DNA of 54,223 nt, from positions 1 to 54,223 of the forward strand of contig CAZDYJ010000003.1 of NCBI GenBank assembly GCA_964509735.1, written 5' to 3'. Shown here piece after piece: positions 1 through 47,952 of the stretch. Source of the stretch: an uncultured Gammaproteobacteria bacterium. Its GTDB lineage: Bacteria > Patescibacteriota > Patescibacteriia > Patescibacteriales > UBA12465. The notes beneath the pieces are model-generated. The model ran no database searches, was not told where the DNA came from, and saw only the letters and a program-made list of their open reading frames with translations. Both the position numbers and the translations under genes were made by a program. Numbering within the stretch: the stretch's first letter is position 1; each line of letters starts with the position of its first letter.

Positions 1-3000
1 CCTTCTCCAGACACATCTTTTTTATAACAACTAAGAGCTGGAACACTTTCCTCAAAGTCAAAATGAGCTGTTGTGTTTAAGCCAAGTTCTTTAATATCAC
101 TGTAATAATTCATGTTTGGTAAAGCATAGCCGCTAGCATTCTTATCTTTCTCAGGGTCAAAAACTCTCGACTCACCTTGAGAATAAGTAATAACATTAGC
201 ACATTGATTTTGTTCGTCTAAGGTATTACATTCCCCCAAGGAATAACATGAAGTGTGTCCTGTTTCAGTGTTTAAACCATAAGAGGTACAAGTTAACCAC
301 TTCGCACAAACTCTATCGGGGTTAACCTTTAATAACTGATTGGCATTATATGGTCCATAAGATAGAGCTGGAGATTTTCCGTCTAAAGTAGCGCTAGCGT
401 TATAAACATTTTTACTTAAACCAGAAGCACCGTTAATTGATCTCTCATTAAACAAAACACAACCACCATTAAAGTCAGTAACCGAGCAAGTTGATTTATT
501 AACACTATCTTTTATCTGATAATCAACTAATAATTCTTTTACCTCAACAACAACACCGCTATTACTTGACCTTGTTAACTTAGCCGAATAGTTATCAAAA
601 GTATTAAATATTATTGGCTGATTAGAGTCAGTTAACTTTAAGCTATTAGTTGGTGTGGCACTGAAATTATTATCGTTTCCTAATGTGCGTACAGAACTTC
701 TAGCAAATTCTAATTCTGAACCAGCAATATAAGTACCGCTTGTAGAATATTTTGCGCTAAATGAATAAAGCTTATTTCTTTCTAATTGAACTACTTGTTC
801 GTTTGCGGAAACTAACGCATTCATCCAAGAATCTTCCCCCCAACTTGGAACATTATTAGAGCCATAAACTTTATACTCAGGATTTCTAACTAAGTTTGGG
901 TTAAATTTACTAACTGGATCAATATACTCTGTACAGCCAGAAGAGTTAGCCTCACAAAGAGCCGTAGATTGATTTGGGACAGGGATAGCGCCGCCAGTTC
1001 CACCAAGACCAATGGTTTTTAAATAACTAACCGAACATTCGTAATCATTATTGTCAGTTATACAGGAGCCTCTTTCGCAATCAATATCGCTAGCGCAAAT
1101 ACTACCACTTGATTCTAAGCCGCTTATAAGGCCGTCACTATTAAAATCGCATCTTTTAACAGGAACCTTAAACCATGCTTTAGAAGAATTTAAAGGATCA
1201 TTACTGCTTCTAAAGATACACAAATTATTAACTGGGTCTTTAAAATAACTAATTCCCCCTGACTTCATTTTATATTCTTCACAACCAATATCACTATAAT
1301 TACAAAGAGAAATATCGTAATTATTAGGATTGTTTTTTCTAAATATATCAGACCATGTTAATCCAGCACCAACTCCACTTGCCTGCCCCATACGACTACA
1401 GCCCAAATCGGCTGACAAACAAGCCTTACTTCTATCATAAATAGCATAAACTACCGAATCTTTATCAACTTCGACGCAATCACTTTCGCCGCTATCACAA
1501 ACGCCATTTAAATTAGTATCATTCCAAACATTGCCAATAGGGGAGTTATAATTTTTTGTATCTATCATTTGCTCACAACCGACAGAATTCGAAGAACATA
1601 AAGTGCTAAAGTTATGAAGATAATGACTTAAGTTATCACGATCTCTATATTGAGCACAACCAAGATTATAATCTGGGCCTTGATAATTTCCTAAATTGTC
1701 ATAATAACAAATATCAGGAATTTTACTGCTACCTTTTTTCAAATAATATCTATCACTTATTTCGGTTATAACAATGTCGTCAATAATAACTGGTGCGTTA
1801 GCTGTAATGTTTAAAGTTCCGGTGGAACCTAAGTTTTTAAGCAAATTTTCTAAACTAACATTATAAATATTCCAAGATTCCCCGCCTTTTATGATAACTT
1901 GGGCATCCTCCTTACTTAAAGATGAGTTGAAATAATATTCTTCTCCGCTCTCTTCGTTTTTTAAGAAAATCCTAAGTTCTGTTTCTACTTGTGAACGGGC
2001 AATAAAGCGAACAGTATAACCATAACCCTCTCTAACATAAGAACCAAAATCAATTTTTGCCTTAACTCCGTCTTCAGATGGGCCGCATAAAGCTCCAAAA
2101 TTATATTGCAAAGATTGACCATTTTGCTCGTTAGAAATTTGACTATCAGAAACACCGCCAGAACAATTGCTGTACCAAGGGTTAATTCCTTGATTAAAGT
2201 CAAAAGAGCTAACTATTCTTGTGCTATTACCATTACTTCCATTATATTCACGACAACCATTATCTTTCTCCCCGCAAACCAATCCTTCGCTTGGAATAGC
2301 CTGATAGACACAAGAATTTTGACTATTATCCCAAATTCCGCCGTTTTTACAAACATAACAAACAGCAGCCGAAGAATTCCAATGTTTATCATTTCCGACA
2401 CAAGAAGTAGCACTTCTAATGTTTTTATCGATATTATTATTGCTTAAACGATAAGAATTACAATTTTCTGAACAAGTAACAACTTTAGATAATAAACGAT
2501 AAGAACTAGCTCCGCTGGCTGTTAAAAACTGCTTACAATCAGGATTATAATTAGGATCGCTAAGTGGCAAATTATAAACGTCAGAACAGTCGGCAGTCTC
2601 CTCATCGCCAATACTTAAAGGATTTCCGTCTACTCCTTTTTGCAAGGTATAGCGAGTTAAATCACCTAAGCCACCGTTTTCCCAGGCATAGTAATCACTA
2701 CATTTTGATTCATCTGGCTTAATACATTGTTTTAAGAAGACATAATATTCTCTACCTTCACCGCCCTTTGCTACTTCGTCTAAATTAGTAAATTCATTAC
2801 AACCAACGGCCTGTTGAGAACACTTTTCAGTTGCACTAGGAATAATATTTTCTGATTCCGCTGGATTAAAGTATGTTTCTCTGGCGATATATAAATCATA
2901 ACCAGAACATTCTTTAGGGCAATAATCGGAACTGGCAACTTGAGCTGGAACCTTTAAATTACTATAAACTCCAGTATATAGTTCACAACCAACCTCGCTA

Positions 3001-5882
3001 GCATTACATTTTCTAGCATAATTTAAACAAACACTTGGAGCATTATCTTTTAAAGAATAATTTTTACTTGCAGAAATTGTATCAACATAACAAGCTTCTT
3101 CTAAATATCTTGGTAAAAGTTTTTGATTAACCTTATAAGCACCATAAGTACTATAAGCTGTTGACCAATCACCTAATTCAAATTTTATATTTTTAACATA
3201 AGCTACAGCGTTTCCGCCAGACAAATTATCAGCAGTAATTAAGAAGTCAGGATTTGAAAAACCTAAAGGAGAAGAGGCTGTAACTGAAATGCTATACCAC
3301 TGACCACGAGTAGAGATAGAGCTAGTTACTTGTCTATCACCTGGGTTAATAATTAATCGGACATTATTACCTTCGGCCAAATAAACATCAGCACTTAATG
3401 TATAGTTTTGATTGGCTAAAATTTGTAAATTATCAGGGAAAATATTAGCGGTTGAACGAACAGAGCCTAAGCCGGCACCACTTATTTTTAAAACCTTTGC
3501 ACTTACCTGTTCGTAAATTTCATCGGAAATATCAACAATACTAGCACTTCCAGTTATTAACCAGCTGGACAAAAGCCCTTCCGGGGAACTTGGCGGAAAT
3601 AAAAATTCAGAATCAATAATCAAATTACTTCCCCATGTTGGCTTAACGCGCATTAATTCTGTGCATCCCTCAGCCGAAGAATTACAAGATTGTAAATTCT
3701 TATTTAAAAACAAGCTATAATTAGTATCCCAAGTAACTGTACCATTAGCATTATAAGCACCGAAAGTTGAATATCTTTTACAACCAGAGTTGTCGGCGTT
3801 ACAATTTCCGTAATCAATTGTGTTTTCTAAATAGGAAACTGTCTGATTATTAGAGATATTGGTAAATGACTGACAAGTGTTGGCAATCGGAGAACAAGTT
3901 TTATTATTAAATTCCCAAGTTCTCTTTTCCTCAGTACAATACCCGTAAAGATCACAACCGCCGTTTACACCTTCTTTAATACAACTTTGATTATCGGCGC
4001 AATAATTATCATCTCTTAAAATCATTAATTCACTTAAAATATCAGCTGTATTTGGAATATCTTTTATTCCTGGAACAACAAATGAATTTAAAATCTGAGA
4101 ACCTGCTCCTTCCCTTTTGCAATAATTAAGAGGGGCTTTTAGGACCCACTTCGGATCTACTAAACCATGACACCAGGCAAGGTCTCTTTGCTCAAAGTTT
4201 GAACTGAATTTATCGTACTCATCGTTTTGATCAAAGCAAGCAATAAGATCACCCAGGGTAGCATTTTTCGGCTCTTCGCCATCTTTAAAAGCTCTTTCAA
4301 TTGCCACCTCGAAGCCAAGAGGTAAAATACGATATTTTCTTAAAATTTTTACATTTCTTAAAGAAAAATGATTATTTTGTGCACCCGGAGAATAATCATA
4401 TTCTATTTTCCAGTCAGCATTTAAATAACCGTCTTTTATGGCATCGCCAACTGTTTTTTGTTCAATAATTGCTTGCATGAACCTATCATTTATAACGCAA
4501 TTATTTGGACCAGGGTTGTTTGGGTCGATACAGGCAGATAAATCGCTTAAAATACTATAATCGCTTTTGGTGTCAAATTGTGGCTCAAGGAGAATCCTGG
4601 TTTTTTCACGCATTAAAGATTCGCCAAAAGCAAGATTTGGGTCAGCAGCATAATCAGTTAATGAAGCAGAGTCCTTTTTATCGGTTAAACTGCGCATTAA
4701 ATTATTATAAGCAGTAATTGCTAATTGATTTAAAAATATATTAGCCGCATCAACTAAAACATCGCCTGTGGTTTTGCCAAAATTCTCTACTCTAATTGCC
4801 CTGGCTTCAGCCTCAGCTTCTCTGGCTGCTTGAGGTGTTCCTTGAATAATGCCAGCAATATCTCTAACTTCTAACCAACCTTGATTTGCTTGTAATCCGC
4901 TATGAGCTACTGAGGCTTCTTTGGTTTTTGTTTCCTCAAGGTCAACTTGAGCCATCATGTAAATACTTAAATCATTACCTCGAGGATCAAAATAACTACC
5001 AAAATTATTAAAGAATGTTCCATCCTGAATAGATTTTAATTTATTATAATAACCCGCAACCCCATCTCCCCAATTACTAATTATATCTGTTGCAGTACAA
5101 TTTGGATCAGCCGGACGAGTGTAGTCAACCAAGCCTAAAGAAATTTTTAGCTTAGCCTCCATGGAAGACGGCTGACAAACATTAAAAGAATTAGCATCTT
5201 GGCCTTTATCTACAACTCTGGTGGCACCAAAGGCTTGTTGACTAGAGCAATTTGTAGCTGCTTTACCGCATTCATCGTAACAAGTTCCTCTTAGCTGCAT
5301 AGAAGCAAGACCAGAAGTAAAAGTCTGTTCTGGGTATAAAGATGTTGTCTTATTAGTCTTATCCTCCACCTTTTTAACACTAAACCCCGTTAAACTACCG
5401 TTATTATCTTTCTTATAGCAGTCTTCATAACAAGCTTTTGTCATAGCCTCACAGCTTCCTTGTTCACCATCTTTTCCAGAAAAATCCAAATTCTGAACAA
5501 AGTTTTCTAAAAATTGTCCAGCCGCTGCATCTCCGACATTTTTCAAATAAGTTCCCCAGTCTTCTTTTATATAAAGCGAGTCCTGCCCTCTCCCTCCTGA
5601 ACCGATATAACTAGCGGCGTCATAAGCTATTTTATTTAAAGAAGCACTTAAAGTTCTTTGAAATGCTAAAGAGCCAGCCTTTTGAATAGCTTTACCTATT
5701 TTTGTTTCAAAAAAACTTTTTATTGCCTGAGCTAAAGCACCAGGATCAGAAACAACTGCTTGAGCAGATACTTGTCTTGGAGCAATCGAAAAAGAAAAAA
5801 CAATTGCTAAAGCAATAAAAGAAAAAATTGTTTTCTTTAAAAGTCCTTTTTCATCTTTTTTATTAAAAAATCTGACTTTCAT
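1..5882 (-). CDS. Giant exported Cys-rich surface protein; 5' end complete, 3' end runs off the left edge of the window (at least 1960 aa)
   Basis: Hand translation: ATG at 5882-5880 and no in-frame stop down to base 1. N-terminal signal/anchor MKVRFFNKKDEKGLLKKTIFSFIALAIVFSFSIAPRQVSAQA. About 70 Cys by hand count and nine C-x5-G-C-x-x-[YFLM] motifs. Not listed in the ORF track, presumably because it has no in-window stop. Confidence 0.85.
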   Translation of the reverse strand, partial: MKVRFFNKKDEKGLLKKTIFSFIALAIVFSFSIAPRQVSAQAVVSDPGALAQAIKSFFETKIGKAIQKAGSLAFQRTLSASLNKIAYDAASYIGSGGRGQDSLYIKEDWGTYLKNVGDAAAGQFLENFVQNLDFSGKDGEQGSCEAMTKACYEDCYKKDNNGSLTGFSVKKVEDKTNKTTSLYPEQTFTSGLASMQLRGTCYDECGKAATNCSSQQAFGATRVVDKGQDANSFNVCQPSSMEAKLKISLGLVDYTRPADPNCTATDIISNWGDGVAGYYNKLKSIQDGTFFNNFGSYFDPRGNDLSIYMMAQVDLEETKTKEASVAHSGLQANQGWLEVRDIAGIIQGTPQAAREAEAEARAIRVENFGKTTGDVLVDAANIFLNQLAITAYNNLMRSLTDKKDSASLTDYAADPNLAFGESLMREKTRILLEPQFDTKSDYSILSDLSACIDPNNPGPNNCVINDRFMQAIIEQKTVGDAIKDGYLNADWKIEYDYSPGAQNNHFSLRNVKILRKYRILPLGFEVAIERAFKDGEEPKNATLGDLIACFDQNDEYDKFSSNFEQRDLAWCHGLVDPKWVLKAPLNYCKREGAGSQILNSFVVPGIKDIPNTADILSELMILRDDNYCADNQSCIKEGVNGGCDLYGYCTEEKRTWEFNNKTCSPIANTCQSFTNISNNQTVSYLENTIDYGNCNADNSGCKRYSTFGAYNANGTVTWDTNYSLFLNKNLQSCNSSAEGCTELMRVKPTWGSNLIIDSEFLFPPSSPEGLLSSWLITGSASIVDISDEIYEQVSAKVLKISGAGLGSVRSTANIFPDNLQILANQNYTLSADVYLAEGNNVRLIINPGDRQVTSSISTRGQWYSISVTASSPLGFSNPDFLITADNLSGGNAVAYVKNIKFELGDWSTAYSTYGAYKVNQKLLPRYLEEACYVDTISASKNYSLKDNAPSVCLNYARKCNASEVGCELYTGVYSNLKVPAQVASSDYCPKECSGYDLYIARETYFNPAESENIIPSATEKCSQQAVGCNEFTNLDEVAKGGEGREYYVFLKQCIKPDESKCSDYYAWENGGLGDLTRYTLQKGVDGNPLSIGDEETADCSDVYNLPLSDPNYNPDCKQFLTASGASSYRLLSKVVTCSENCNSYRLSNNNIDKNIRSATSCVGNDKHWNSSAAVCYVCKNGGIWDNSQNSCVYQAIPSEGLVCGEKDNGCREYNGSNGNSTRIVSSFDFNQGINPWYSNCSGGVSDSQISNEQNGQSLQYNFGALCGPSEDGVKAKIDFGSYVREGYGYTVRFIARSQVETELRIFLKNEESGEEYYFNSSLSKEDAQVIIKGGESWNIYNVSLENLLKNLGSTGTLNITANAPVIIDDIVITEISDRYYLKKGSSKIPDICYYDNLGNYQGPDYNLGCAQYRDRDNLSHYLHNFSTLCSSNSVGCEQMIDTKNYNSPIGNVWNDTNLNGVCDSGESDCVEVDKDSVVYAIYDRSKACLSADLGCSRMGQASGVGAGLTWSDIFRKNNPNNYDISLCNYSDIGCEEYKMKSGGISYFKDPVNNLCIFRSSNDPLNSSKAWFKVPVKRCDFNSDGLISGLESSGSICASDIDCERGSCITDNNDYECSVSYLKTIGLGGTGGAIPVPNQSTALCEANSSGCTEYIDPVSKFNPNLVRNPEYKVYGSNNVPSWGEDSWMNALVSANEQVVQLERNKLYSFSAKYSTSGTYIAGSELEFARSSVRTLGNDNNFSATPTNSLKLTDSNQPIIFNTFDNYSAKLTRSSNSGVVVEVKELLVDYQIKDSVNKSTCSVTDFNGGCVLFNERSINGASGLSKNVYNASATLDGKSPALSYGPYNANQLLKVNPDRVCAKWLTCTSYGLNTETGHTSCYSLGECNTLDEQNQCANVITYSQGESRVFDPEKDKNASGYALPNMNYYSDIKELGLNTTAHFDFEESVPALSCYKKDVSGE

Positions 5883-5924
5883 TTTTTTAAATATTATGAA
5901 ATTTTTATTATAAAATATTTAAGG

Positions 5925-6593
5925 CTATTCTTCCATTTTAGAAACCATAGCTTCTAAATAAATAGCTTGTAAATCTTCGTCACTTATTAAATCAAGTTGT
6001 TCTTGGCTAAAACCGTTTACCAACATTAACTCTCTTAAAACAGAAATATTAATTTCTCCACTGACAACTGAATTTAAAAACTCCTCATCTTCATTATTAA
6101 CTGATAAAATATTCTCATTTTCTGAGGGTAAATTTAACTGAGTATTGCTAGTAGAAGCAGTTTCGGAAAAATTATCATTTCCGGAACAATTTTCTCCTTC
6201 AGCACACTTGGGATCGCTTCCGTAAACAAATATTTCATCATAATCACTTCGACCATCACTATCGGTATCTTCTAAGTATGGGGAGGTTTTATGAATGTAT
6301 ATTTCATCATAATCAGATAGCCCATCTCCGTCTGTATCCATGCTCATTAAAACGGCCGTATGAAATTCTACAGCTTCTTGTTGACTGGCTGGAATAGCAG
6401 CTTCTCCGCCATAACGAAAAGGAGATCTAATTCGATTAATGAATTGTAAAACTCCTAAAGTTATAAAAAAAACGCCAAAGATAGCCAGAAAAATTACTGC
6501 TATTTTTTGCGTTTTTTCTTTTTTTTCCTGATTTGGATCTCGGCCTTCTTTTAACGAAAAATCGGGCTGATAATTATTTTCCAGCATAATCAA
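5925..6593 (-). CDS. Membrane-anchored protein with thrombospondin type-3-like Ca-binding repeats
   Basis: Single TM segment (IAVIFLAIFGVFFITLGVLQF), then DTDGDGLSDYDE and DTDSDGRSDYDE repeats (DxDxDGxxDxxE). Same strand as the giant ORF and 42 nt upstream of it. Confidence 0.7.
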   Translation of the reverse strand: MIMLENNYQPDFSLKEGRDPNQEKKEKTQKIAVIFLAIFGVFFITLGVLQFINRIRSPFRYGGEAAIPASQQEAVEFHTAVLMSMDTDGDGLSDYDEIYIHKTSPYLEDTDSDGRSDYDEIFVYGSDPKCAEGENCSGNDNFSETASTSNTQLNLPSENENILSVNNEDEEFLNSVVSGEINISVLRELMLVNGFSQEQLDLISDEDLQAIYLEAMVSKMEE

Positions 6594-10780: not shown

Positions 10781-11578
10781 ATGAGTATTTCTGATCGATT
10801 AAATTATGCCCGGATGAAATCTAAGCATCAAAAAATGCTTTTACCTTGGCATAAAAAATGGTGGGGAGTTTTATTAATAATTTTTCTTATTATTCTGGTT
10901 ATAATTGTTATTTTTTCCACTTTCTACGTAATAAACAGAACAAAAGAAATAATTAAAGAAAGAGAGGCTGTTGGACTCACTACTAATACGCTGGTTTATT
11001 TAAGATCTATTGAAGGCGATGGTAGTAATTATTATTTAGGAAAAAATCAATCTTTTTATAATTATTTTCTAAACGCTCAAAATAATATAAACCAAGAACC
11101 GGTAGTTGATGTCGTTGTCTTTAGTAATTTTTCTTGTGCGTTTAGTGCTCAATCATCAAGGATAATGAGATCTATGGCTACTGAATTTGGCGAAAAGGTT
11201 CGCTTTGTCTTTCGTGACAGCCCAACCCAGGATTCGATAGTTTTAGCAGTTGGTGCTCGCTGTGCCGGAGAGCAAGGAAAGTTTTGGGAAATGCATGATT
11301 TTTTATTTGAATTACAAGATGATTTTTCCAGCTTAATTGAAGAAGATGAAAAAAAATTATTTTTAAAACAAATGGCTGAAATACTAGAATTAGATACAGA
11401 AAAATTTAACACCTGCTTAGAAGAAAGAAAGTATTTAGAAAAAATAAAAAAAGATTACGAAGACGGAGAAAAACTAAATATTTCTGGAACTCCAACCTGG
11501 TTCGTTAATGGGCAAGAAATTATTGGTTCTTTAAGTGAAGATTTATTTCGCAATCTTCTATCTGGATTAATTAAATAA
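10781..11578 (+). CDS. Membrane-anchored DsbA-family thioredoxin-fold protein with a CxxS (CAFS) active-site motif
   Basis: N-terminal TM (WWGVLLIIFLIILVIIVIFSTFYVI). DsbA-like layout: VVVFSNFSCAFSAQ ... GKFWEMHDFLF ... ISGTPTWFVNG (cis-Pro loop TP). Confidence 0.75.
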   Translation: MSISDRLNYARMKSKHQKMLLPWHKKWWGVLLIIFLIILVIIVIFSTFYVINRTKEIIKEREAVGLTTNTLVYLRSIEGDGSNYYLGKNQSFYNYFLNAQNNINQEPVVDVVVFSNFSCAFSAQSSRIMRSMATEFGEKVRFVFRDSPTQDSIVLAVGARCAGEQGKFWEMHDFLFELQDDFSSLIEEDEKKLFLKQMAEILELDTEKFNTCLEERKYLEKIKKDYEDGEKLNISGTPTWFVNGQEIIGSLSEDLFRNLLSGLIK

Positions 11579-12404: not shown

Positions 12405-13571
12405 ATGAAAAATAAAATAAAAAAAGAGTTTTTAGAAGGGTCAAGAGCGGTGGCTTTAACTATTTTAAATATTAATCCGGCTGTTGTTTCTGCTTACCCC
12501 ATAACCCCCCAAACTCATATAGTTGAAGACTTAGCAAAAATGAAAGCTGATGGCACAGCTGATTTCGAATACTTAAGAGCGGAAAGTGAATTTGCAGCTG
12601 CCTCTATAGTTTTAGGAGCTAGCGCGGCTGGAGTAAGAACTTACAGCGCTACCAGCTCTCAGGGCTTATTGCTAATGTCTGAGGTTGTTCATAATATTTC
12701 TGGTCTACGCTTACCAGTTGTTATGACTTGTGCTAATCGGGCAATTTCTTCACCAATTAATATCTGGAACGATCATAGTGATATTATGAACCTACGTGAT
12801 GCAGGTTTTATTCAGTTTTTTGCCTCAGATCTTCAAGAGGCAGTTAATCAACATATTTTAGCTTATAAAATTGCCGAGAAAATGAATTTACCAGTTATGA
12901 TAAATATGGATGGCTTTATTTTAACTCATTCTTATGAACCGGTTTTTATTCCATCACGTTCTTTAATTAAAAAATTTCTACCTGATTATAAACCAGAAAA
13001 AGGCACTTATCTTGATCCAAAAAATCCTCTAACTTTAGGAGCTTTCTTCCCTCCCGAATATTATATGAAGACTCGCCAGGACTTACATGACGATCTTTTA
13101 ATTTCCCTTGAATTAATTAAAAAAGAAACAAAAAATCTAAATAAAATAATTGGCTTTAAAAATGTTGATAATGGACTAGTTGAATATATTGGTGATAAAA
13201 AAGCAAAAACAGTTTTAGTAGCTCTTGGCTCGGTTAATGGCACGATTGAAGAAGTTATAAAAAAGATTAAAAATGTTTCTTTGTTAAAAATAAAAACCTA
13301 TCGTCCTTGGCCAAGAGAAGAAATAAAAAAGTCTTTAGAAAAATGTGAAAATATTGCCGCGATTGAAAAGTTTATTGGACTTGGTCAAGCTGGACCTCTT
13401 TACCTCGATTTAGTAGAAACTTTTAGTCAAGAAAAAAAACAAAAAAATATTAAAAATTATATTGTCGGTCTGGGCGGTAAAGATGTTAGTCAGGAAATGA
13501 TTAAAAAAATAATAACAGATGTTCAAAAAAAACATCAGTCCATAGAAGAAGTGGCTAAATTTTTCTATTAA
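12405..13571 (+). CDS. porA: 2-oxoacid:ferredoxin oxidoreductase, alpha subunit
   Basis: 388 aa. N-terminus GSRAVALT...VVSAYPITPQT typical of POR alpha. Confidence 0.9.
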   Translation: MKNKIKKEFLEGSRAVALTILNINPAVVSAYPITPQTHIVEDLAKMKADGTADFEYLRAESEFAAASIVLGASAAGVRTYSATSSQGLLLMSEVVHNISGLRLPVVMTCANRAISSPINIWNDHSDIMNLRDAGFIQFFASDLQEAVNQHILAYKIAEKMNLPVMINMDGFILTHSYEPVFIPSRSLIKKFLPDYKPEKGTYLDPKNPLTLGAFFPPEYYMKTRQDLHDDLLISLELIKKETKNLNKIIGFKNVDNGLVEYIGDKKAKTVLVALGSVNGTIEEVIKKIKNVSLLKIKTYRPWPREEIKKSLEKCENIAAIEKFIGLGQAGPLYLDLVETFSQEKKQKNIKNYIVGLGGKDVSQEMIKKIITDVQKKHQSIEEVAKFFY

Positions 13572-13575
13572 AAAT

Positions 13576-14559
13576 ATGTTTAAAAACCAAAACAAAAAGA
13601 TAAAATCACTGACCATATTAATTGTTTTAGCAATTTGTTTTCTTGGCTTACCATATTTTGTTTTTGCCACTACCTCAACAAGTAAATTTGAAACGCTTTA
13701 TTTTACTCCACAAATTGAAATTCCTAATTCGGGCATTTCAGGAAAAACCTCCCTGTCTGGTGCACCAAATGCGGACGGAGTTGTAACTAGCAATTTACTG
13801 GGAGTCTACATTAAAGCAATTTATAATTATGGCTTAAGTGTAGCAGGTATATTAGCAGCTATAGTTATGATGGCTGGTGGTATTATGTGGCTTACCTCGG
13901 GAGGAGATTCTGGGCAAGTTTCTAAGGCAAAAAGTTTTATTGGCGGTAGTTTAGTGGGTTTATTTTTACTTTTTGGTGTCTATATAATTTTAAATACTGT
14001 TAACCCACTATTGGTTGAGTTAAAGGAATTGCCTACTATGACTATAAAAAGCGTGGTAACAGAAAATGTTTATTGTTGTCACCCGCAAAAAGGTCTTGTA
14101 AATATAAGTGTAAAAAAAATTGGTGATGATTTATTTTATGCTGACAGTAGAAACGAGGTTGGTGGAAAAATTAAAGAAGAAGGAACAAGTTTTTCTGGTT
14201 GCTGGAACGAACTTGCTTCAGAGGATTGTAAACCTGAAGACAGTGCTCAGTGTATTAAAGATGATAAACTAAAAAGTTATGTTTGTATAAATCCAAAAAA
14301 TAAAATCTGCTGTACTTGCACAGTGGGTGATAATTGGATCATGAACAGATACACATCCTGTCGAGAAAATGTTACTCAGGATGAGTGTGATAAATTCTGT
14401 AATGGAGAATTAAAGAAATACGAAACAAAGGATAATAAAACTTATAAGCTTTTTAACAACCTTTACCCCATTAAACATGGTTTATATAAATGCACCGATG
14501 CTACAAAAGGTCAAGTGTGTGATTATACTAGTCAAGGTGGGTCTGGTGGTTCTTGGTAA
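13576..14559 (+). CDS. Exported TrbC/VirB2-like (T4SS-pilin-type) two-helix membrane protein with a 14-Cys C-terminal domain
   Basis: Signal/anchor (LTILIVLAICFLGLPYFVFA). Helix-loop-helix core YNYGLSVAGILAAIVMMAGGIMWLTSGGDSGQVSKAKSFIGGSLVGLFLLFGVYIILNTVNP. C-terminal ~165 aa holds 14 Cys. Start lies 4 nt after the porA stop. Confidence 0.7.
   Translation: MFKNQNKKIKSLTILIVLAICFLGLPYFVFATTSTSKFETLYFTPQIEIPNSGISGKTSLSGAPNADGVVTSNLLGVYIKAIYNYGLSVAGILAAIVMMAGGIMWLTSGGDSGQVSKAKSFIGGSLVGLFLLFGVYIILNTVNPLLVELKELPTMTIKSVVTENVYCCHPQKGLVNISVKKIGDDLFYADSRNEVGGKIKEEGTSFSGCWNELASEDCKPEDSAQCIKDDKLKSYVCINPKNKICCTCTVGDNWIMNRYTSCRENVTQDECDKFCNGELKKYETKDNKTYKLFNNLYPIKHGLYKCTDATKGQVCDYTSQGGSGGSW
13831..13950 (+). 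repeat. 120-nt copy A of the conserved pilin-core coding repeat
   Basis: 108/120 nt identical to 16031-16150 by hand alignment. 38/40 encoded residues are identical. Confidence 0.9.
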
Positions 14560-14604: not shown

Positions 14605-15483
14605 ATGAAAAATATAAAATCAAAAAAATTCCTGTCACCCGGTCATAATGCTTGTGCTGGCTGTGGACAGTTGTCAGCCGCTCAAGCGGTTATGCGAGCT
14701 CTTAGTCCAGACACGATAATTGCTAATGCGACTGGTTGTTTAGAAGTAACTACGACTGCCTATCCTCAGAGTGCTTGGGGTTTACCTTGGATACATTCAT
14801 TATTTGAAAATGCTTCTAGTGTTGCCAGTGGAATACAAGCAGCTTTAAATAAAAAGGGGGATAAAAAAACAAAAGTAATAGTTCAGGCTGGTGACGGCGG
14901 AACTTATGATATTGGCTTTGGTCAGATAAGTGGCATGTGGGAAAGAGGTGAAAATATTTTATATATTTGTTATGACACAGAAGCTTATTCAAATACCGGC
15001 ATTCAAGCATCAGGCGCAACCCCTTACGGAGCAAGCACAACAACTAGTCCAAGCGGCAAAGATTCCATCGGTTCAACTCAAAGAAAAAAAGACATGATAG
15101 CTGTTGCTTTAGCTCACGGACTAAAATATGTTGCTCAAAGTTCAGCTGGCTTTCCTGATGATATAACTAATAAGGTAAAAAAAGCTTTAGCGACAAATGG
15201 CCCAAGCTACATTCAAATTCTTTCTCCTTGTATTCCTGGTTGGAATGTAAATTATGATGAGGCGGTTATGTTTGGAAAATTATCAGCCCAAACAGGTCTT
15301 TACCCTTTACTTGAATATGTTGATGGAAAATTAAGCTCTTCAAGTATTAGAGAAAACTTTCAAGCTAAGCCCGTAGAAGATTATCTTTTAAAACAAGGTC
15401 GCTTTAAACATTTAAAGCCAAGAGATATCGAGGAAATCCAAAAAATGGCTAATTTAAATATTGAAAAATATAGATTGATTTAA
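14605..15483 (+). CDS. porB: 2-oxoacid:ferredoxin oxidoreductase, beta subunit (TPP-binding)
   Basis: GHNACAGCG cysteine motif and TPP-binding GDGGTYDIG...Y.NTG; 292 aa. Confidence 0.9.
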   Translation: MKNIKSKKFLSPGHNACAGCGQLSAAQAVMRALSPDTIIANATGCLEVTTTAYPQSAWGLPWIHSLFENASSVASGIQAALNKKGDKKTKVIVQAGDGGTYDIGFGQISGMWERGENILYICYDTEAYSNTGIQASGATPYGASTTTSPSGKDSIGSTQRKKDMIAVALAHGLKYVAQSSAGFPDDITNKVKKALATNGPSYIQILSPCIPGWNVNYDEAVMFGKLSAQTGLYPLLEYVDGKLSSSSIRENFQAKPVEDYLLKQGRFKHLKPRDIEEIQKMANLNIEKYRLI

Positions 15484-17003: not shown

Positions 17004-17408
17004 TTACCTCCCTCTATCCATAGCCTCATTGGCCAACTGATCAGCTTCTTTATTGAGTTCACGTCGAATGTGAGTATAATTTATATTCTTAAAACCTAGT
17101 GATAAATTATGAATTTCTAAAAACAAAGGCGCTAGATCGGCATTTTTAACTTTATATTCTCTTTTTAGTTGTTTAACAACTAATTCACTATCTAAAAAGC
17201 ATTGAATATCTTCCCCTTTTAATTCTTTAGCTTTTTTAAGTGCGGCTAGTAAAGCTCTGTATTCGGCTTGATTGTTAGTTGTGTTTCCTAAAAATTCAGA
17301 CACTTCAGCAATCTTATTTTTTTTCTCATCATATAAAACAGCTCCTATGCCAGCTGGCCCAGGATTGCCACGTGCCCCACCATCGCTATAAATAATAATT
17401 TTTTTCAT
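17004..17408 (-). CDS. rnhA: Ribonuclease HI
   Basis: DGGARGNPGPAGIG, TNNQAEYRAL, DSELVVKQ and NKEADQLAN (DEDD catalytic pattern); 134 aa. Confidence 0.85.
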   Translation of the reverse strand: MKKIIIYSDGGARGNPGPAGIGAVLYDEKKNKIAEVSEFLGNTTNNQAEYRALLAALKKAKELKGEDIQCFLDSELVVKQLKREYKVKNADLAPLFLEIHNLSLGFKNINYTHIRRELNKEADQLANEAMDRGR

Positions 17409-23131: not shown

Positions 23132-24670
23132 CTATCTCTTAAAAATCTCCTTAATTTTTTCTAAAATATTTTTACCAGAAAATTCAACTTTAATTTTTTC
23201 TATTGATAAATAATTGTCATATTCAAGCTCTGATCCAAAACCACTATCATGCTCTAAGCCGGGAATAGAAATAACAAAAGAATATTTGTTATTTAAAAAA
23301 TCAGCTCCTCTTAAATCAAATTCAACCGTGGCAGTTTTTAAACCATCTTCATTTTTAGGCGACTCATAGCTAGCAACGACAAAACTTTCTTTCTCGGGAG
23401 AAAATAATCTATCAATTTTTCTCGGCTCAGAATTAAAAAATTTATCTTTATTAATTGAGATAAAGCCCCTGGTTTCAATAATAATATCACTTTTTTCCAG
23501 CTTAATATTTTTCAAATCCAATAAATTATCAACTTCTCCAGAAAAATTTTTATAAGTCTTTGAAATGTCTATAACTTCATCATCTATTTTAACTTTTGAT
23601 AAAGATTCAGTATTAAATGTTTTAAAATTTAAAGAACTAGCATTACTCCAAAAGTCACCATAAACAAGCTCGTAAACAGGCCAAACTTTATTAATAAAAA
23701 CTAAACGATCAGATGAGCTTTCTATTTCTTCTATAACAATATTACTATTAGCGATAATCTCAAACTTATACAAACCCTCTTCTTTAAAAAAATCATTAAA
23801 AATAAGCTCATCAATTAACTCTCCTTGACGAAAATTATTATCAAAACTTAAACCACTAAAATTATCCTTTTTTAACTCTAAAATCTGACTGCTTATTAAT
23901 TCATCTTGAAAATAAAGACGAACATTAATATTCCCTGGCAAATTATCAAGGTTTAAATTTCTAAAATTAATTTTTAAATTATCTTTTGAATCTTTAAAAT
24001 AAACTTGAAACTGATGAGAACCTCTTAAAGCTTGTCTTATTGTTAGGGGAAAAGTTTGAGTGTAAGCTGGCAACTTATAATCTCTTTTCAAAGAATGGTT
24101 ATAAAAAGCCACACAATTTAAAGCCTCGGTTGAGCAATTTTCTAAATAATTTTTATCTAAATCTGAAAAGAATTTTTCAGAACTATTATATATTTCTTCT
24201 TTTTGCAAAACTAACAAAGCATTCTCATCCACTAAGCGCTTCCAGGAAAATCTTAATTTATCTAAAATTTTATTTTGAATAGGTTTTAGCTCATAAGCCT
24301 GGGAACTTAAGTCCTTTAAAACTCCTAATTCAACGATTGGAGTTTCAGATGATAATTTATCGTGATATTCTATGGTAATTTTAGCTTTACTGAAAGTTCG
24401 CGGACTTAAAATTGAAAAATAAACCGGATCTGATATTATAACCAAGGATTCTTTTTGAGAAAAATCTATTCTTTCTCCTGGTCTAAAATCAGCAAAAAAG
24501 CCTCTGCCTAAATTTATGCTTTTAGAAAAATTTGATGAAAAACTTATTTTTCCACCTGGGACAAATTTAAAACATAAAAATAAGGCTAATAAAAGCAAAA
24601 AAATCGCAACAAAAATTAAACGAAGCCTATATTTTAAAGCTTGATTTTTTATTTTTTTTAGACTAATCAT
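23132..24670 (-). CDS. N-terminally anchored extracytoplasmic protein (512 aa), hypothetical
   Basis: Long ORF with one N-terminal TM (LIFVAIFLLLLALFLCF) and no recognised motifs. First gene of an apparent operon with the 75-aa gene and murJ. Confidence 0.6.
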   Translation of the reverse strand: MISLKKIKNQALKYRLRLIFVAIFLLLLALFLCFKFVPGGKISFSSNFSKSINLGRGFFADFRPGERIDFSQKESLVIISDPVYFSILSPRTFSKAKITIEYHDKLSSETPIVELGVLKDLSSQAYELKPIQNKILDKLRFSWKRLVDENALLVLQKEEIYNSSEKFFSDLDKNYLENCSTEALNCVAFYNHSLKRDYKLPAYTQTFPLTIRQALRGSHQFQVYFKDSKDNLKINFRNLNLDNLPGNINVRLYFQDELISSQILELKKDNFSGLSFDNNFRQGELIDELIFNDFFKEEGLYKFEIIANSNIVIEEIESSSDRLVFINKVWPVYELVYGDFWSNASSLNFKTFNTESLSKVKIDDEVIDISKTYKNFSGEVDNLLDLKNIKLEKSDIIIETRGFISINKDKFFNSEPRKIDRLFSPEKESFVVASYESPKNEDGLKTATVEFDLRGADFLNNKYSFVISIPGLEHDSGFGSELEYDNYLSIEKIKVEFSGKNILEKIKEIFKR

Positions 24671-40972: not shown

Positions 40973-41686
40973 TTAAGCTAAATTCGTATAATAATCACTA
41001 ACATCTTCATTGTCTTCTAATTCGGAAAGCAAGCGATCAATTTTTTCATTTTCCTCATCAGATAAATTTATTTTATCCTTAGCCACATATTCAATTTCAG
41101 CTGACTCTATCTTTAAAGACTTATCAATTAAAAATTTTTCTGTTTCTTGTAAGTCTTTTACTTCTGTAAAAATAGTTATACCTTCGACTTCTTTTTTAAA
41201 ATCAACCACATTCTTATCAATTAATTCTAATTCTAAATCGTCGATAGAAACATTTTTTAAATCTTCGGTTAAAATTCTAATAACTCCTAATTGAGAAAAA
41301 TTCCATAAAACAGAAGACAAGGCTCCGCCATTTTTTGTAAAAGTATGTCTAACTGAAGACCCGCTACGATTTTTATTGTCAGTTAAACATTTAACAACAA
41401 TTTGAATATTTGGCGGAACAATTCCTTCGTAATAAATTTCTTCAATCTGATCTCCTTGTAATTCACCTGTTCCCTTTTTTATAGCTCTTTCTATATTATC
41501 TTTAGGCATGCTCACACTTTTTGCCCGATCAATGGCTACTCTAAGACTTGGATTAGCGTCTGGATCGCCACTTATTTTAGCAGCCACGCTAATAGCGTTA
41601 GCTAGTTTTGTAAAAATTGCTCCTCTTTTTGCATCAACAACGGCTTTTTGGCGATGAGTTGTCGCCCATTTTGAGTGTCCTGACAT
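40973..41686 (-). CDS. yebC: YebC/PmpR family transcriptional regulator
   Basis: Starts MSGHSKWATTHRQK, giving 237 aa. The 340-aa track ORF carries an implausible low-complexity N-terminal extension that overlaps the divergent gene. Confidence 0.9.
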   Translation of the reverse strand: MSGHSKWATTHRQKAVVDAKRGAIFTKLANAISVAAKISGDPDANPSLRVAIDRAKSVSMPKDNIERAIKKGTGELQGDQIEEIYYEGIVPPNIQIVVKCLTDNKNRSGSSVRHTFTKNGGALSSVLWNFSQLGVIRILTEDLKNVSIDDLELELIDKNVVDFKKEVEGITIFTEVKDLQETEKFLIDKSLKIESAEIEYVAKDKINLSDEENEKIDRLLSELEDNEDVSDYYTNLA

Positions 41687-41789
41687 ATCAAAAATCATTA
41701 TTTTTATAATAGACAAAAATTGACGTTTTTTTATACGCCCTTTGTTTTTAGGATAACCCGAATTGAAATAAAAATCAAGATAGATTATA

Positions 41790-42716
41790 ATGAAAAATAT
41801 GAAAATCAATAAAAAAAAGATAGAAAATCTAAATGAAGTCGTTTTAAAAGCTTTAGATTTTTTTAGTAAAAATCCTCCAAAAAACTTTAAAACATCTTCT
41901 TTTAAATTTCCCCTGGTAATTGGCAGTGGAAATGCTATCAATGCCGGAAAATTAATCTTTGGCGAGCAGGCTGCTTTATTTGCCACTGAAAGCAATTTTA
42001 AAGAAATATTAAAAAACTACCAAGAATTATTTCATAAAAAAATAATAAAAGAAGCTGTTGTTATATCAGCCTCTGGAGAAAAAGATTCTGTCTGGGAAAT
42101 AGAATTAGCCAAAAAAATTGGATTAAAAACCAGTCTTTTAACTTGTTCTAAAAATTCTAGTGCAGGAAAAATAGCTGACAAAACTTTTATTTTCGAAAAA
42201 TTACCAGAACCTTATACTTATAATGTTTCAACTTATTTAGGTATGATTTTAGCCGCTAAAGGAGAAAAGGCGGAAAATATTAAAAAGTTTATAAAAGCTT
42301 TAAAAATTCCTAATAATTTTTCCAGCTTTGCAGCCTATTCTTTTATATTACCAGATAAATTCGCCGCCTTAGCGCCAATGATAGATATAAAAAGACATGA
42401 ATTATTTGGCCCCAGACTTTCTTTAAGAGCTTTTAGTGAAGGCGAAGCTCGCCATGCTAAATTTGTAATAGATTGGGATAAAGAATTAATTATAAGTTTT
42501 GGCAAAAATAAATATTTTGGAGAACAAAACAGAAAATGGGAAATAAACTTAAACAAAAATTATGACCAAGCTTTTATGATGGCTTTAAGTTATTATATAG
42601 TTGGCTTAATTCAAGAAACAAAAAATCCTTATTTTAAAAAAAATATTGCAAGTTATTGCCAGAAAGGTCCAAAAGCTTATGGACAAAAAGGTGAATTTCA
42701 GATTATAGTCGAATAA
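41790..42716 (+). CDS. Hypothetical protein, possibly SIS (sugar isomerase/phosphosugar-binding)-like
   Basis: VVISASGEKDS plus a GLKTSLLTCS pattern resembles an SIS fold. Weak, motif-level only. Confidence 0.4.
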   Translation: MKNMKINKKKIENLNEVVLKALDFFSKNPPKNFKTSSFKFPLVIGSGNAINAGKLIFGEQAALFATESNFKEILKNYQELFHKKIIKEAVVISASGEKDSVWEIELAKKIGLKTSLLTCSKNSSAGKIADKTFIFEKLPEPYTYNVSTYLGMILAAKGEKAENIKKFIKALKIPNNFSSFAAYSFILPDKFAALAPMIDIKRHELFGPRLSLRAFSEGEARHAKFVIDWDKELIISFGKNKYFGEQNRKWEINLNKNYDQAFMMALSYYIVGLIQETKNPYFKKNIASYCQKGPKAYGQKGEFQIIVE

Positions 42717-46698: not shown

Positions 46699-47952
46699 AT
46701 GGATTACGAACAAGATAAAAATAAACAAGAGTCTTCTCAGGAAGGACTTGAAAGTAAAATTGAAGAAAATCCTTTTAACCCAGAAAAGCCTTTATCGGAG
46801 ATTAAAGAAGTTGCTTTAGAAAAAGGTGAAGAAAAAATTGAAAAAAGCTCGGCTGAGTTAGAGTTTAATTTGGAAAATTTTTCTGGAGCAGTTGGTAATG
46901 AAGATTTTTTAGTAGCTGAAATGGAAAGCATTAAATCTGAAGCAGAGGAGAAAATAAATGAAGTGGGTAATGAATTTAAAAAAAATGTAAATGAAGTAGC
47001 TGATACTGATATAGAAAATAAAGAAGATAAAACGGAAAAAAGCACTGCGGAAATAAAATCTGAATCTATAGAAAAAGCTCAAAATACAAAAAAAGAAATA
47101 ATTAATTTATATAAAGAACTAAAAAAAACAAAAGATTTAGGAGAGAAGGAAAAAATAAGCTCAGAAATAAAAGAAAAAGAAGGGTCTTTAAATGAAATAA
47201 AAAAAGAATACTTGGTTGCTTCTGGTGAAGAAATTTCTAAAGCTATTTTTGAAGAAGTAAAAGCTAACCCAGAAAATAGATCTTTAATAAAACTTAAAGC
47301 TCAAATTAAAGCGTTGGAAGAAATGAATGAAAAAATGGAATCCGGAACTATTAGCGCCGAAGATCATCATGCTTCTAAAAGTTTTATAGCAAAAATAGGT
47401 AAATATTTACCAAAAAACAAACTTGCTCAAGCTGCTTTAGTGGCTGGAGTTGTTTCTGTTGGCGCTATAGCCGCTAGCGGTGGTTTTTCGGCTGGACTAA
47501 GTCTTTATTTAGGCACAAAAATAGCTACAAAAATGGGCAGATCAATAGCTGGAGTTTTGGTTGGTGAAAAAATCGTTGATTTAATAGGAAAAGGCATTGA
47601 CAAATCCCAGGAAAAAAGAGAAGATAAACTGTTGTCAGAAAATTTAGATAGTTCCTTGGATAAAATAGTAGAAATTCACAATGAAAAAATAAAAACCAAG
47701 CAAAAATCTGAAAAAATTAAGAAATACACAAAAATAGGAGCTCATGTTCTTTTTGCTGGCACTTTAATGGGCGGACTCGAAGTAGCTGAGGCTGGCTTAA
47801 AGGGAGCAGTTAATTTAGCAGGTAGCGGAAGTATGTTTGCCGAAGTTTTCTCACATAGCGTTAAATACGCAGGACTTGATATCGGTGGTGATAAATTAAT
47901 TCACAAATCTGTCCATGCTCACGAACACTTAGAACACAAAAAAGCAGCTTAA
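46699..47952 (+). CDS. Hypothetical protein: acidic coiled-coil N-terminal half, Gly/Ala-rich membrane C-terminal half, His-rich tail
   Basis: 417 aa. Hydrophobic segments LAQAALVAGVVSVGAIAASGGFSAGLSLYLG and IGAHVLFAGTLMGGL. C-terminus HKSVHAHEHLEHKK. Confidence 0.55.
   Translation: MDYEQDKNKQESSQEGLESKIEENPFNPEKPLSEIKEVALEKGEEKIEKSSAELEFNLENFSGAVGNEDFLVAEMESIKSEAEEKINEVGNEFKKNVNEVADTDIENKEDKTEKSTAEIKSESIEKAQNTKKEIINLYKELKKTKDLGEKEKISSEIKEKEGSLNEIKKEYLVASGEEISKAIFEEVKANPENRSLIKLKAQIKALEEMNEKMESGTISAEDHHASKSFIAKIGKYLPKNKLAQAALVAGVVSVGAIAASGGFSAGLSLYLGTKIATKMGRSIAGVLVGEKIVDLIGKGIDKSQEKREDKLLSENLDSSLDKIVEIHNEKIKTKQKSEKIKKYTKIGAHVLFAGTLMGGLEVAEAGLKGAVNLAGSGSMFAEVFSHSVKYAGLDIGGDKLIHKSVHAHEHLEHKKAA

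Follow-up and report, generated by a model that had tools for sequence, protein, structure and literature searches.

A Giant Cysteine-Rich Protein Family of Patescibacteria with Predicted Lectin-Like Domains, a Candidate Host-Contact Fiber Encoded beside Type IV Secretion Genes

The Giant Gene and Its Family

The first 5.9 kb of a 54,223-nucleotide stretch of contig CAZDYJ010000003.1 (assembly GCA_964509735.1; hereafter the window, meaning the whole stretch that was analyzed) carry on the minus strand a giant open reading frame (ORF) for a cysteine-rich protein with the features of an exported product. Machine translation of window positions 1–5882 gave 1,960 sense codons from 5882 to 3 with zero stops and 2 leftover bases, in agreement with the uninterrupted frame that the initial annotation had read by hand, and an in-frame stop sits 12 codons upstream of the ATG. 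The protein begins MKVRFFNKKDEKGLLKK... and its sequenced part contains 71 Cys (3.6%), where about 70 had been counted by hand, together with 10.6% S, 8.8% N, 7.7% G, 5.3% Y, and 5.1% T, the N/S/T/G/Y-rich composition noted before. The mechanical ORF list shows only fragments of 65–113 amino acids (aa) across bases 1–5900 because ORFs running off an end are not listed, which is the reason that had been suspected for the omission. The gene does continue past the window, as had also been proposed: homologs are mostly 2,400–3,000 aa long, so that about 800 C-terminal residues of the window copy are missing.

Using the giant fragment as query against 5.8 billion proteins, we recovered 114 relatives with 24–58% identity (best 58%), nearly all of them 2,400–3,000 aa long and aligned over 85–100% of the 1,960 residues. 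Their only database name is “hypothetical protein” and their sources are Patescibacteria or Candidatus Falkowbacteria metagenome-assembled genomes (MAGs). A profile of residues 38–640 searched against 1.84 billion cluster representatives (50% identity) extended the family to 1,515 representatives at E ≤ 1e-3, including 1,067 at E ≤ 1e-30; the top 150 of the 1,515 matches, those listed, are all giants or fragments of giants. When one genome of each GTDB species was scanned, relatives turned up in 465 stretches. The family is mostly Falkowbacteria, and across 207 full-length members the medians are 2,717 aa for length and 94 for the number of Cys. It appears to be previously undescribed, given the lack of any account in the literature searched and the uninformative database names.

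The giant gene is thus a real member of a conserved, length-constrained family. A frame kept open by chance, or a pseudogene in decay, would be compatible with a 3′ end outside the window and with the absence of any obvious Shine–Dalgarno-like sequence upstream of the ATG. Against this stand a probability of about 1e-63 that such a frame would stay open by chance at 35% GC, and hundreds of full-length homologs with conserved length, domain order, and invariant Cys. The frame decay, or absence from relatives, that the initial annotation had named as grounds for doubt was not seen. The nongene reading is effectively refuted, and we give it a practically negligible probability.

Constraint is most apparent at the cysteines. 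In an alignment of 110 sequences most Cys positions are 95–100% conserved while overall identity drops to ∼24–35%, which is strong evidence that the Cys framework is under purifying selection and has a structural role.

Many of the MAG records with the giant locus are titled “uncultured Gammaproteobacteria bacterium” (L006, L008, L011, L018, L019, and others), and L064 is titled “Bacillota bacterium.” Because their flanks are syntenic with Falkowbacteria loci, these titles are probably placeholders or wrong taxonomic labels.

Export and Anchoring

The sole hydrophobic segment of the giant fragment lies at residues ∼13–37 and has the organization of a Sec-type signal peptide, with a K-rich n-region, a 17-residue h-region, and a predicted cleavage site VSA/QA (the slash marking the cut), whose A/Q junction is kept across the family alignments. 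Exactly one N-terminal hydrophobic segment and none later was found in 184 of the 207 full-length members; in 11 of the 207 a further such segment occurs later. Only 2 of the 207 show, near the C-terminus, a match resembling LPXTG, the signal for sortase (the C-terminus of the window copy lies outside the window), and no membrane or sortase anchor was found in full-length family members. The initial annotation had left the N-terminus as either a signal peptide or an anchor. A cleaved signal peptide is the more likely option because full-length members have no anchor. For the same reason, the mature giant would be either released or held non-covalently after export.

Domain Architecture

AlphaFold2 (AF2) models of residues 1–930 and 905–1960 have a mean predicted local distance difference test score (pLDDT) of 56 and 60, respectively, and, in combination with family alignments, profile comparisons, and Foldseek searches, allow the fragment to be divided into the segments listed in table 1. 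The best-conserved motif of the N-terminal part is LNKIAYDxAxYxGSGGxGQ, with invariant N83, A90, G99, and Q100 (alignments A6 and A8). It lies among predicted helices at residues 47–94 and 109–136, which are followed by others at 144–159 and 192–215, all at pLDDT <50. The insert that comes next varies across the family, with a column occupancy of 0.21–0.63 and Cys144–212 kept in only ∼45% of members. The family-specific domain behind it is predicted to be helical to residue ∼430 and to contain an alpha/beta part at ∼450–590 that has invariant D and E residues and is modeled with pLDDT 78–89 at 460–580. The initial annotation could not place the first ∼600 residues in any family, and neither could we: Pfam and NCBIfam searches with the 1,960-aa fragment gave nothing above cut-off, a PDB sequence search with the same fragment gave no match, and the N-terminal profile A6 had no PDB sequence or Pfam match above cut-off. 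For the family-specific region 236–627 no relatives are detectable.

Between residue 628 and the edge of the window, three Cys-free domains separate four regions rich in Cys. Within the Cys-rich regions we counted ∼11 copies of the module C-x4-x-G-C-x-(E/R)-(Y/F/L), with C-x6-C spacing. The Cys arrays are mutually related, with hhalign probabilities of 62–92% (C1–C2 87%, C2–C3 92%; array 1 vs. 2 and 3, 62–87%). There are no DNA tandem repeats in the giant gene, which rules out a recently expanded repeat protein and suggests that the modularity of the Cys arrays is ancient. In full-length relatives, 82 of 207 members have a C-terminal motif IDWGDG...PHxFYHxY...DNWG reminiscent of a PKD domain; Pfam did not confirm the likeness, giving no PKD match in homologs P0001, P0096, and P0111 at E ≤ 0.1.

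Two of the Cys-free domains, B1 and B2, are homologs (hhalign 96%, E 4e-9), and B3 has no detectable relation to either (2.3% and 0.5%). The sandwiches of both model halves superpose on carbohydrate-binding modules (CBMs) of families CBM4, CBM16, CBM22, and CBM61, with target-normalized template modeling (TM) scores of 0.54–0.72 and E values of 1e-5 to 6e-7, and the Foldseek match lists are dominated by CBMs. For B1 the scores against PDB CBMs are 0.54–0.70 (E ∼1e-6) and for B2 against CBM22 and CBM4 they are ∼0.7. The sequence family CBM_4_9 (PF02018, cut-off 25.9 bits) is found in homologs at the position equivalent to B2, above cut-off in P0096 (26.5 bits) and below it in P0111 (24.0) and P0001 (19.1; residues 1224–1318), and many homologs carry precomputed PF02018 matches. 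The models thus predict at least two CBM4/22-like beta-sandwich domains in the giant, which may bind glycans. The initial annotation had proposed a candidate adhesin or host-contact protein; that suggestion is plausible and better grounded now that these sandwiches are predicted, as a candidate role and not a demonstrated one. Foldseek also returned Cry, Vip, and iota-toxin structures. A toxin reading was rejected, as these alignments span only the shared beta-sandwich modules.

The giant has the beta-sandwich fold of CBM4, CBM9, CBM16, and CBM22 modules in common with characterized proteins, but its copies come without a recognizable glycoside hydrolase and are set in a disulfide-rich stalk. 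The stalk itself invites comparison with furin-like, EGF, and LDLR-type repeats, which likewise consist of short disulfide-bonded hairpins in an extended extracellular stalk, the disulfides of the giant being presumptive. The model of residues 905–1960 has a weak whole-model resemblance, in Cys-rich region 3, to the Cys-repeat ectodomains of Elapor1 and ApoER2. However, the TM score to these is ∼0.1, there is no sequence homology, and the C-x6-C “GC-x-E-Y” module appears to be specific to the family. The features that look new in this protein are this putative disulfide module, the ∼600-residue N-terminal domain without known relatives, the lack of an anchor, and a conserved gene placement that corresponds, in a monoderm T4SS, to the position of VirB5 (see below).

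CBM4/22-type modules usually accompany glycoside hydrolases in characterized proteins, and most of the CBM matches of the giant come from glycoside-hydrolase-type enzymes. The giant could accordingly be a secreted polysaccharide- or wall-processing enzyme, either a VirB1-like wall-breaching factor or a host-wall degrader, with a catalytic region at residues 236–627 and CBM-like modules targeting it to its substrate. The confidently modeled, conserved alpha/beta domain at 450–590 with its invariant acidic residues would fit such a role, as would the scarcity of recognizable VirB1 homologs in Patescibacteria (PMC12102498). We consider an enzyme unlikely, however, as Pfam, NCBIfam, and PDB profile searches recovered no catalytic family, Cys-rich stalk makes up the bulk of the protein, an unusual build for an enzyme, and the neighborhood already encodes peptidoglycan hydrolases in the form of pilin fusions (see below).

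Table 1. Segments of the giant ORF and neighboring genes in the window
Feature	Coordinates	Strand	Basis
Giant ORF, codons 1–1960, truncated at window edge; full-length relatives ∼2,700 aa	3..5882	-	Open frame and homologs
Sec-type signal peptide, residues 1–40, predicted cleavage VSA/QA (rule-based)	5763..5882	-	Only hydrophobic segment; conserved A/Q junction
Mature N-terminal module, residues 41–135: AVVSD (degenerate IPVxD), then predicted long helices	5478..5762	-	Alignments, AF2
Variable Cys-containing insert, residues ∼140–235	5178..5465	-	Present in less than half of family
Family-specific conserved domain, residues 236–627	4002..5177	-	Conservation 0.44–0.63
Cys-hairpin array 1, residues 628–740, C-x6-C modules C-x4-xGC-x-E/R-Y/F	3663..4001	-	Cys 100% conserved
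Beta-sandwich B1, residues ∼750–915, CBM4/16/22/61-like jelly-roll	3138..3635	-	pLDDT 73–92, Foldseek
Cys-rich region 2, residues 931–1210	2253..3092	-	Invariant Cys framework, motifs, hhalign
Beta-sandwich B2, residues ∼1224–1375	1758..2213	-	Homologous to B1; pLDDT 76–91; Foldseek
Cys-rich region 3, residues 1392–1650	933..1709	-	Cys conservation, motifs, hhalign
Cys-free beta-rich domain B3, residues ∼1654–1795, unassigned fold	498..923	-	Strands at pLDDT 61–84
Start of Cys-rich region 4, residues 1799–1960, continues past window	3..488	-	Conserved Cys1859–1894; homologs ∼800 aa longer
TSP3 (calcium-binding) repeat protein, 222 aa, membrane-anchored	5925..6593	-	PF18884, 32.2 bits
DsbA-like thioredoxin, N-terminal hydrophobic region	10781..11578	+	Thioredoxin_4 and DSBA Pfam matches
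327-aa ORF between POR subunit genes	13576..14559	+	T4SS_pilin E 0.032, subthreshold
VanY/M15 peptidoglycan (D-Ala-D-Ala) peptidase, 443 aa	15488..16819	+	VanY 1e-7; T4SS_pilin E 0.0044 at residues 185–235, subthreshold

Type IV Secretion Genes Downstream of the Giant in Relatives

The downstream flank of the giant lies beyond base 1 of the window and was read from related contigs comprising 85 loci. In the closest relative (L001), which is fully syntenic upstream, the giant is followed by d1, a ∼870-aa polytopic protein, three unassigned proteins, and, as components of a type IV secretion system (T4SS), PrgI (VirB3-like), a TraC-like protein, and a VirB4-type ATPase. The product of d1 has ∼190 aa with a charged leader and two hydrophobic helices; it belongs to no Pfam family, and its pilin-like topology of two transmembrane helices is an impression only. 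A gene for the polytopic, VirB6-like protein lies on the same strand 0.7–3.4 kb downstream of the giant in 41 of 45 eligible loci, and d1 is found in 40 of the 45. Members of the polytopic family have an invariant ∼340-residue transmembrane core followed by a long charged tail. Three of ten gave a TrbL/VirB6 match (best E 4.5e-4), in addition to one weak precomputed TrbL_3 match, and the protein looks like an “extended VirB6.” Searching its profile against PDB sequences returned only low-complexity noise from the charged tail.

PrgI, TraC-like, and VirB4 genes follow within 10 kb in six of nine informative contexts. VirB4 lies 7–10 genes downstream of the giant in L001, L003, L088, L089, and L090, and L087 shows PrgI and the TraC-like gene before the locus ends. 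In these loci the giant falls within the 20-coding-sequence neighborhood of virB4 that served as criterion in a phylum-wide survey (PMC12102498). The core of the arrangement, a ∼240-aa protein, the giant, and an 820–1,200-aa protein, holds in the most divergent members, at 24–28% identity. Upstream of the giant, relatives encode proteins in which a T4SS_pilin domain is joined to domains of peptidoglycan hydrolases (VanY, NlpC/P60, and 3D).

Upstream Neighbors in the Window

The window is ordinary chromosome, with xth, leuS, ksgA, POR subunit genes, recJ, lepA, murJ, rpoB/C, ftsK, glgA, and polA among other genes, and is not a mobile element. The minus-strand genes xth, leuS, ksgA, TSP3, and giant form a string with gaps of 0–42 nucleotides, in which the TSP3 gene precedes the giant ORF by 42 nucleotides. 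No terminator-like site lies between these two, and promoter and terminator scans were not meaningfully above shuffled background. The TSP3 gene is directly upstream of the giant in 63 of 68 loci, the most distant members included, and its product may serve the giant as a partner or a chaperone. Divergent from the string is the gene for the DsbA-like protein, found at the same spot in 55 of 57 loci, which is a plausible oxidase for a giant with ∼94 Cys. Because the giant is predicted to be extracytoplasmic and has this neighbor, its cysteines would be expected to form disulfides.

Syntenic homologs of the VanY/M15 gene pair T4SS_pilin with VanY, NlpC/P60, and 3D peptidoglycan hydrolase domains. 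Such pilin-hydrolase fusions may have a VirB1-like wall-breaching function, and the 443-aa protein of the window is possibly part of the same secretion apparatus. The 327-aa ORF, which has no firm family assignment, interrupts the genes for pyruvate:ferredoxin oxidoreductase (POR), between a POR_N/PFOR_II gene (12405–13571) and the gene for the TPP-binding subunit (14605–15483). This interruption is kept in L001, L086, L088, and L089, and the L088 copy was flagged as T4SS_pilin, weakly.

Several further observations concern the rest of the window and its relatives. A stand-alone 134-aa RNase H/RVT_3-type gene (17004–17408, minus strand) adjoins recJ and is also present at the edge of the syntenic L088 locus. 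Two ORFs, of 512 aa (23132–24670, minus strand) and 417 aa (46699–47952, plus strand), have no Pfam match at E ≤ 1e-3. The YebC/TACO1 ORF (40973–41995, minus strand) has a TTG start, matches its Pfam family from residue 108, and overlaps a plus-strand ORF at 41790–42716; its listed start is probably too far upstream. GC skew (+0.29) and AT skew (+0.28) reach their highest positive values in the segment 46001–48000, which stands apart from neighboring blocks of plus-strand genes. The syntenic leucyl-tRNA synthetase is enlarged in divergent relatives, to 946 aa in L087 (5550–8390) and 1,148 aa in L091 (3046–6492); both have NUDIX Pfam matches, and that of L091 also has alpha/beta-hydrolase matches.

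Comparison with VirB5

A comparison with VirB5-type proteins was prompted by a subthreshold match of residues 26–54 to DUF4141 (PF13605; 19.6 bits, E 5.9e-4, threshold 30 bits). Bacteroides conjugative transposons encode members of this family beside traJ and close to traG (PMC10434189). The match overlaps the signal peptide, falls to 14.5 bits when the latter is removed, and recurs in 3 of 25 members, all below cut-off. In plasmid R388 the gene order is VirB4, TrwJ (VirB5), a small Eex lipoprotein, and TrwI (VirB6), to which the order giant, d1, VirB6-like runs parallel, the VirB6 assignment being subthreshold. TrwJ reads ...VMA/QGIPVFD around its cleavage site, and many giants have a mature N-terminus of the form (A)Q-I/V-P-V-x-D/E; in the window copy, VSA/QAVVSD, it is degenerate. 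In 39 of 210 giants, counts that are not phylogenetically independent, the mature N-terminus carries the strict motif [ILVM]P[VIT]x[DE], against a background of 0.5% in equal-sized windows elsewhere in the giants and 1% in other signal-bearing ORFs.

Homology searches did not extend these likenesses. At E ≤ 1, neither the window protein nor any of 25 N-terminal slices matched PF07996 (VirB5), and hhalign of profile A6 against R388 TrwJ gave a probability of 0.5%, a comparison with low power because it used a single template sequence. VirB5 structures, which are three-helix bundles with a globular appendage, are absent from the Foldseek matches listed. A profile of mature residues ∼1–100 returned no shorter, VirB5-sized relatives but only proteins of 94–161 aa, two of them labeled partial, which we read as fragments of giants, so that this search says little either way. 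We therefore reject membership in the VirB5 family on the Pfam and hhalign results and keep the analogy of position and motif.

Like the VirB5/TrbJ/TrwJ minor pilins (PF07996), which are adhesins of the T4SS pilus tip and dock on a VirB6 pentamer, the giant has a Sec signal, an IPVxD-type motif in part of its family, a predicted helical N-terminus, and a gene that is followed at once by a small gene and then by a VirB6-like one, and an adhesive or docking role is proposed. It differs in being ∼12 times larger, in lacking profile and Pfam homology, and in carrying Cys-hairpin arrays and CBM-like domains. Moreover, VirB5 comes from Gram-negative MPF_T systems, whereas the giant belongs with a monoderm MPF_FATA-like system in which VirB5 is not expected; in the phylum-wide survey VirB5 was found only in one MPF_T-type genome (PMC12102498). 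Patescibacterial T4SS loci nevertheless have VirB2-like pilins and no recognized VirB5 (PMC12102498, PMC12857230).

On these grounds the giant could be a genuine counterpart of VirB5, acting in the essential, non-conjugative Patescibacteria T4SS both as the tip or stalk subunit and as the fiber that binds receptors of the host. With its cleaved N-terminus placed on the platform of the extended VirB6, it would nucleate the VirB2-like pilus, and a C-terminal adhesin fiber of ∼2,500 residues, disulfide-stapled and lectin-bearing, would select and hold the host cell. Gene order, the enrichment of the motif over background, the DUF4141 match, the predicted helical N-terminus, and a vacant VirB5 slot beside known pilins all point this way. 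We nonetheless find it doubtful, with the motif restricted to a minority of members, the helical model at pLDDT <50, and the Pfam and hhalign comparisons giving no support. The idea is a special case of the broader explanation that we prefer, to which we now turn.

A Candidate Host-Contact Fiber

Patescibacterial T4SSs resemble monoderm conjugation machinery, usually without a relaxase and with VirB2-like pilins (PMC12102498). In Southlakia epibionticum the T4SS, its pilins, and several adhesins are essential for epibiotic growth (PMC10633639, PMC12857230), and among secretion systems of this kind the Patescibacteria T4SS is the first that has proved indispensable to its owner for growing on a host (PMC10633639, PMC12857230). 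The phylum-wide survey reported no T4SS adhesin and no PrgB homologs in Patescibacteria (PMC12102498).

We propose that the giant is a disulfide-stapled, glycan-binding surface fiber that serves as the host-contact element of the patescibacterial T4SS. The Sec pathway would export the ∼2,700-residue protein and the signal peptide would be removed, after which the giant would fold outside the cell into a long fiber with ∼45 disulfides, in which Cys-hairpin arrays alternate with CBM4/22-like lectin beta-sandwiches and which has no covalent or membrane anchor. Its helical N-terminal module would hold the fiber on the cell by docking to the T4SS apparatus encoded downstream (the small protein with two transmembrane helices, the extended VirB6/TrbL-like protein, PrgI/VirB3, TraC-like, and VirB4), and the distal lectin domains would bind glycans of the host-cell surface. 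The window itself adds hints in the form of the weak T4SS_pilin-like ORFs, the DsbA-like neighbor, and the close packing of the giant with the TSP3 gene on one strand. What the data show directly are the export-signal features, the missing anchor, the invariant Cys scaffold, the CBM-like folds, and the gene order; disulfide bonds, glycan binding, coupling to the T4SS, and host contact are inferred. This is the best explanation that we can offer, and we put its chance of being correct at about even.

Several points weigh against this proposal. The AF2 model of the N-terminal 430 residues is unreliable and permits no fold assignment, and the window copy itself has no CBM_4_9 match at E ≤ 0.1. 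The Cys could in principle bind metals instead of forming disulfides. The VirB6 assignment of the neighbor rests on matches below curated cut-offs, and three of the nine informative contexts (L004, L086, and L091) have no VirB4 module within 10 kb, the block ending after the gene d3. Housekeeping neighbors are as conserved as the T4SS genes, ksgA being present in 68 of 68 loci and leuS in 55 of 57; with gene order so stable, synteny is only moderate evidence of a functional link.

The same observations would suit a general surface fiber that works independently of the T4SS, as an adhesin or as an S-layer-like envelope protein, with the adjacency to the VirB6-like gene a case of frozen gene order. 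The VirB4 module lies elsewhere in the three contexts just named, no sequence or fold homology of the giant to any T4SS component was found, and several adhesins that Saccharibacteria require contain lectin-type domains without being described as parts of a T4SS (PMC10633639). Yet a protein without any anchor must be retained by some partner; the giant, d1, the VirB6-like gene, and d3 stay contiguous even where the VirB4 part is split off, and at 24–28% identity; and a VirB5-type motif at the mature N-terminus coincides with the VirB5 gene position. As synteny is the main link to the T4SS, we retain an independent fiber as a real, though lesser, possibility.

Known adhesins offer partial parallels for a T4SS-associated fiber. 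PrgB, the aggregation substance of pCF10, is like the giant a large, secreted protein of the cell surface whose gene accompanies a monoderm-type T4SS (PrgI/VirB3-like, VirB4) and for which a role in cell–cell contact is presumed. PrgB-type adhesins are, however, LPXTG-anchored and Cys-poor, whereas the giant is Cys-rich and lacks an LPXTG signal, and no PrgB-type adhesin domain was matched in it by Pfam or NCBIfam. The lectin-domain adhesins and T4SS of Southlakia provide the same phylum and lifestyle context, with polysaccharide-binding surface proteins, a monoderm-type T4SS, VirB2-like pilins, and no relaxase. No homolog of the giant has been reported from Southlakia, though; the giant family is centered on Falkowbacteria-type lineages and its linkage to the T4SS is positional only. 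By type, we infer, the giant is a large surface adhesin associated with a secretion system.

The analysis provides a domain map for a family that comprises more than 1,000 clusters and had no annotation, with a putative C-x6-C disulfide module and a conserved ∼600-residue N-terminal domain. As a large, length-conserved, secreted family with lectin-like domains, encoded directly upstream of a VirB6-like gene, the giants are a concrete candidate for the missing host-contact element of the T4SS in Falkowbacteria-type lineages. If the giant were a VirB5 equivalent, a monoderm T4SS would have a component of a new architectural class. Should the link to the T4SS prove wrong, the giant would still rank with the largest surface proteins conserved in these ∼1 Mb genomes, of which its gene occupies roughly 1%.

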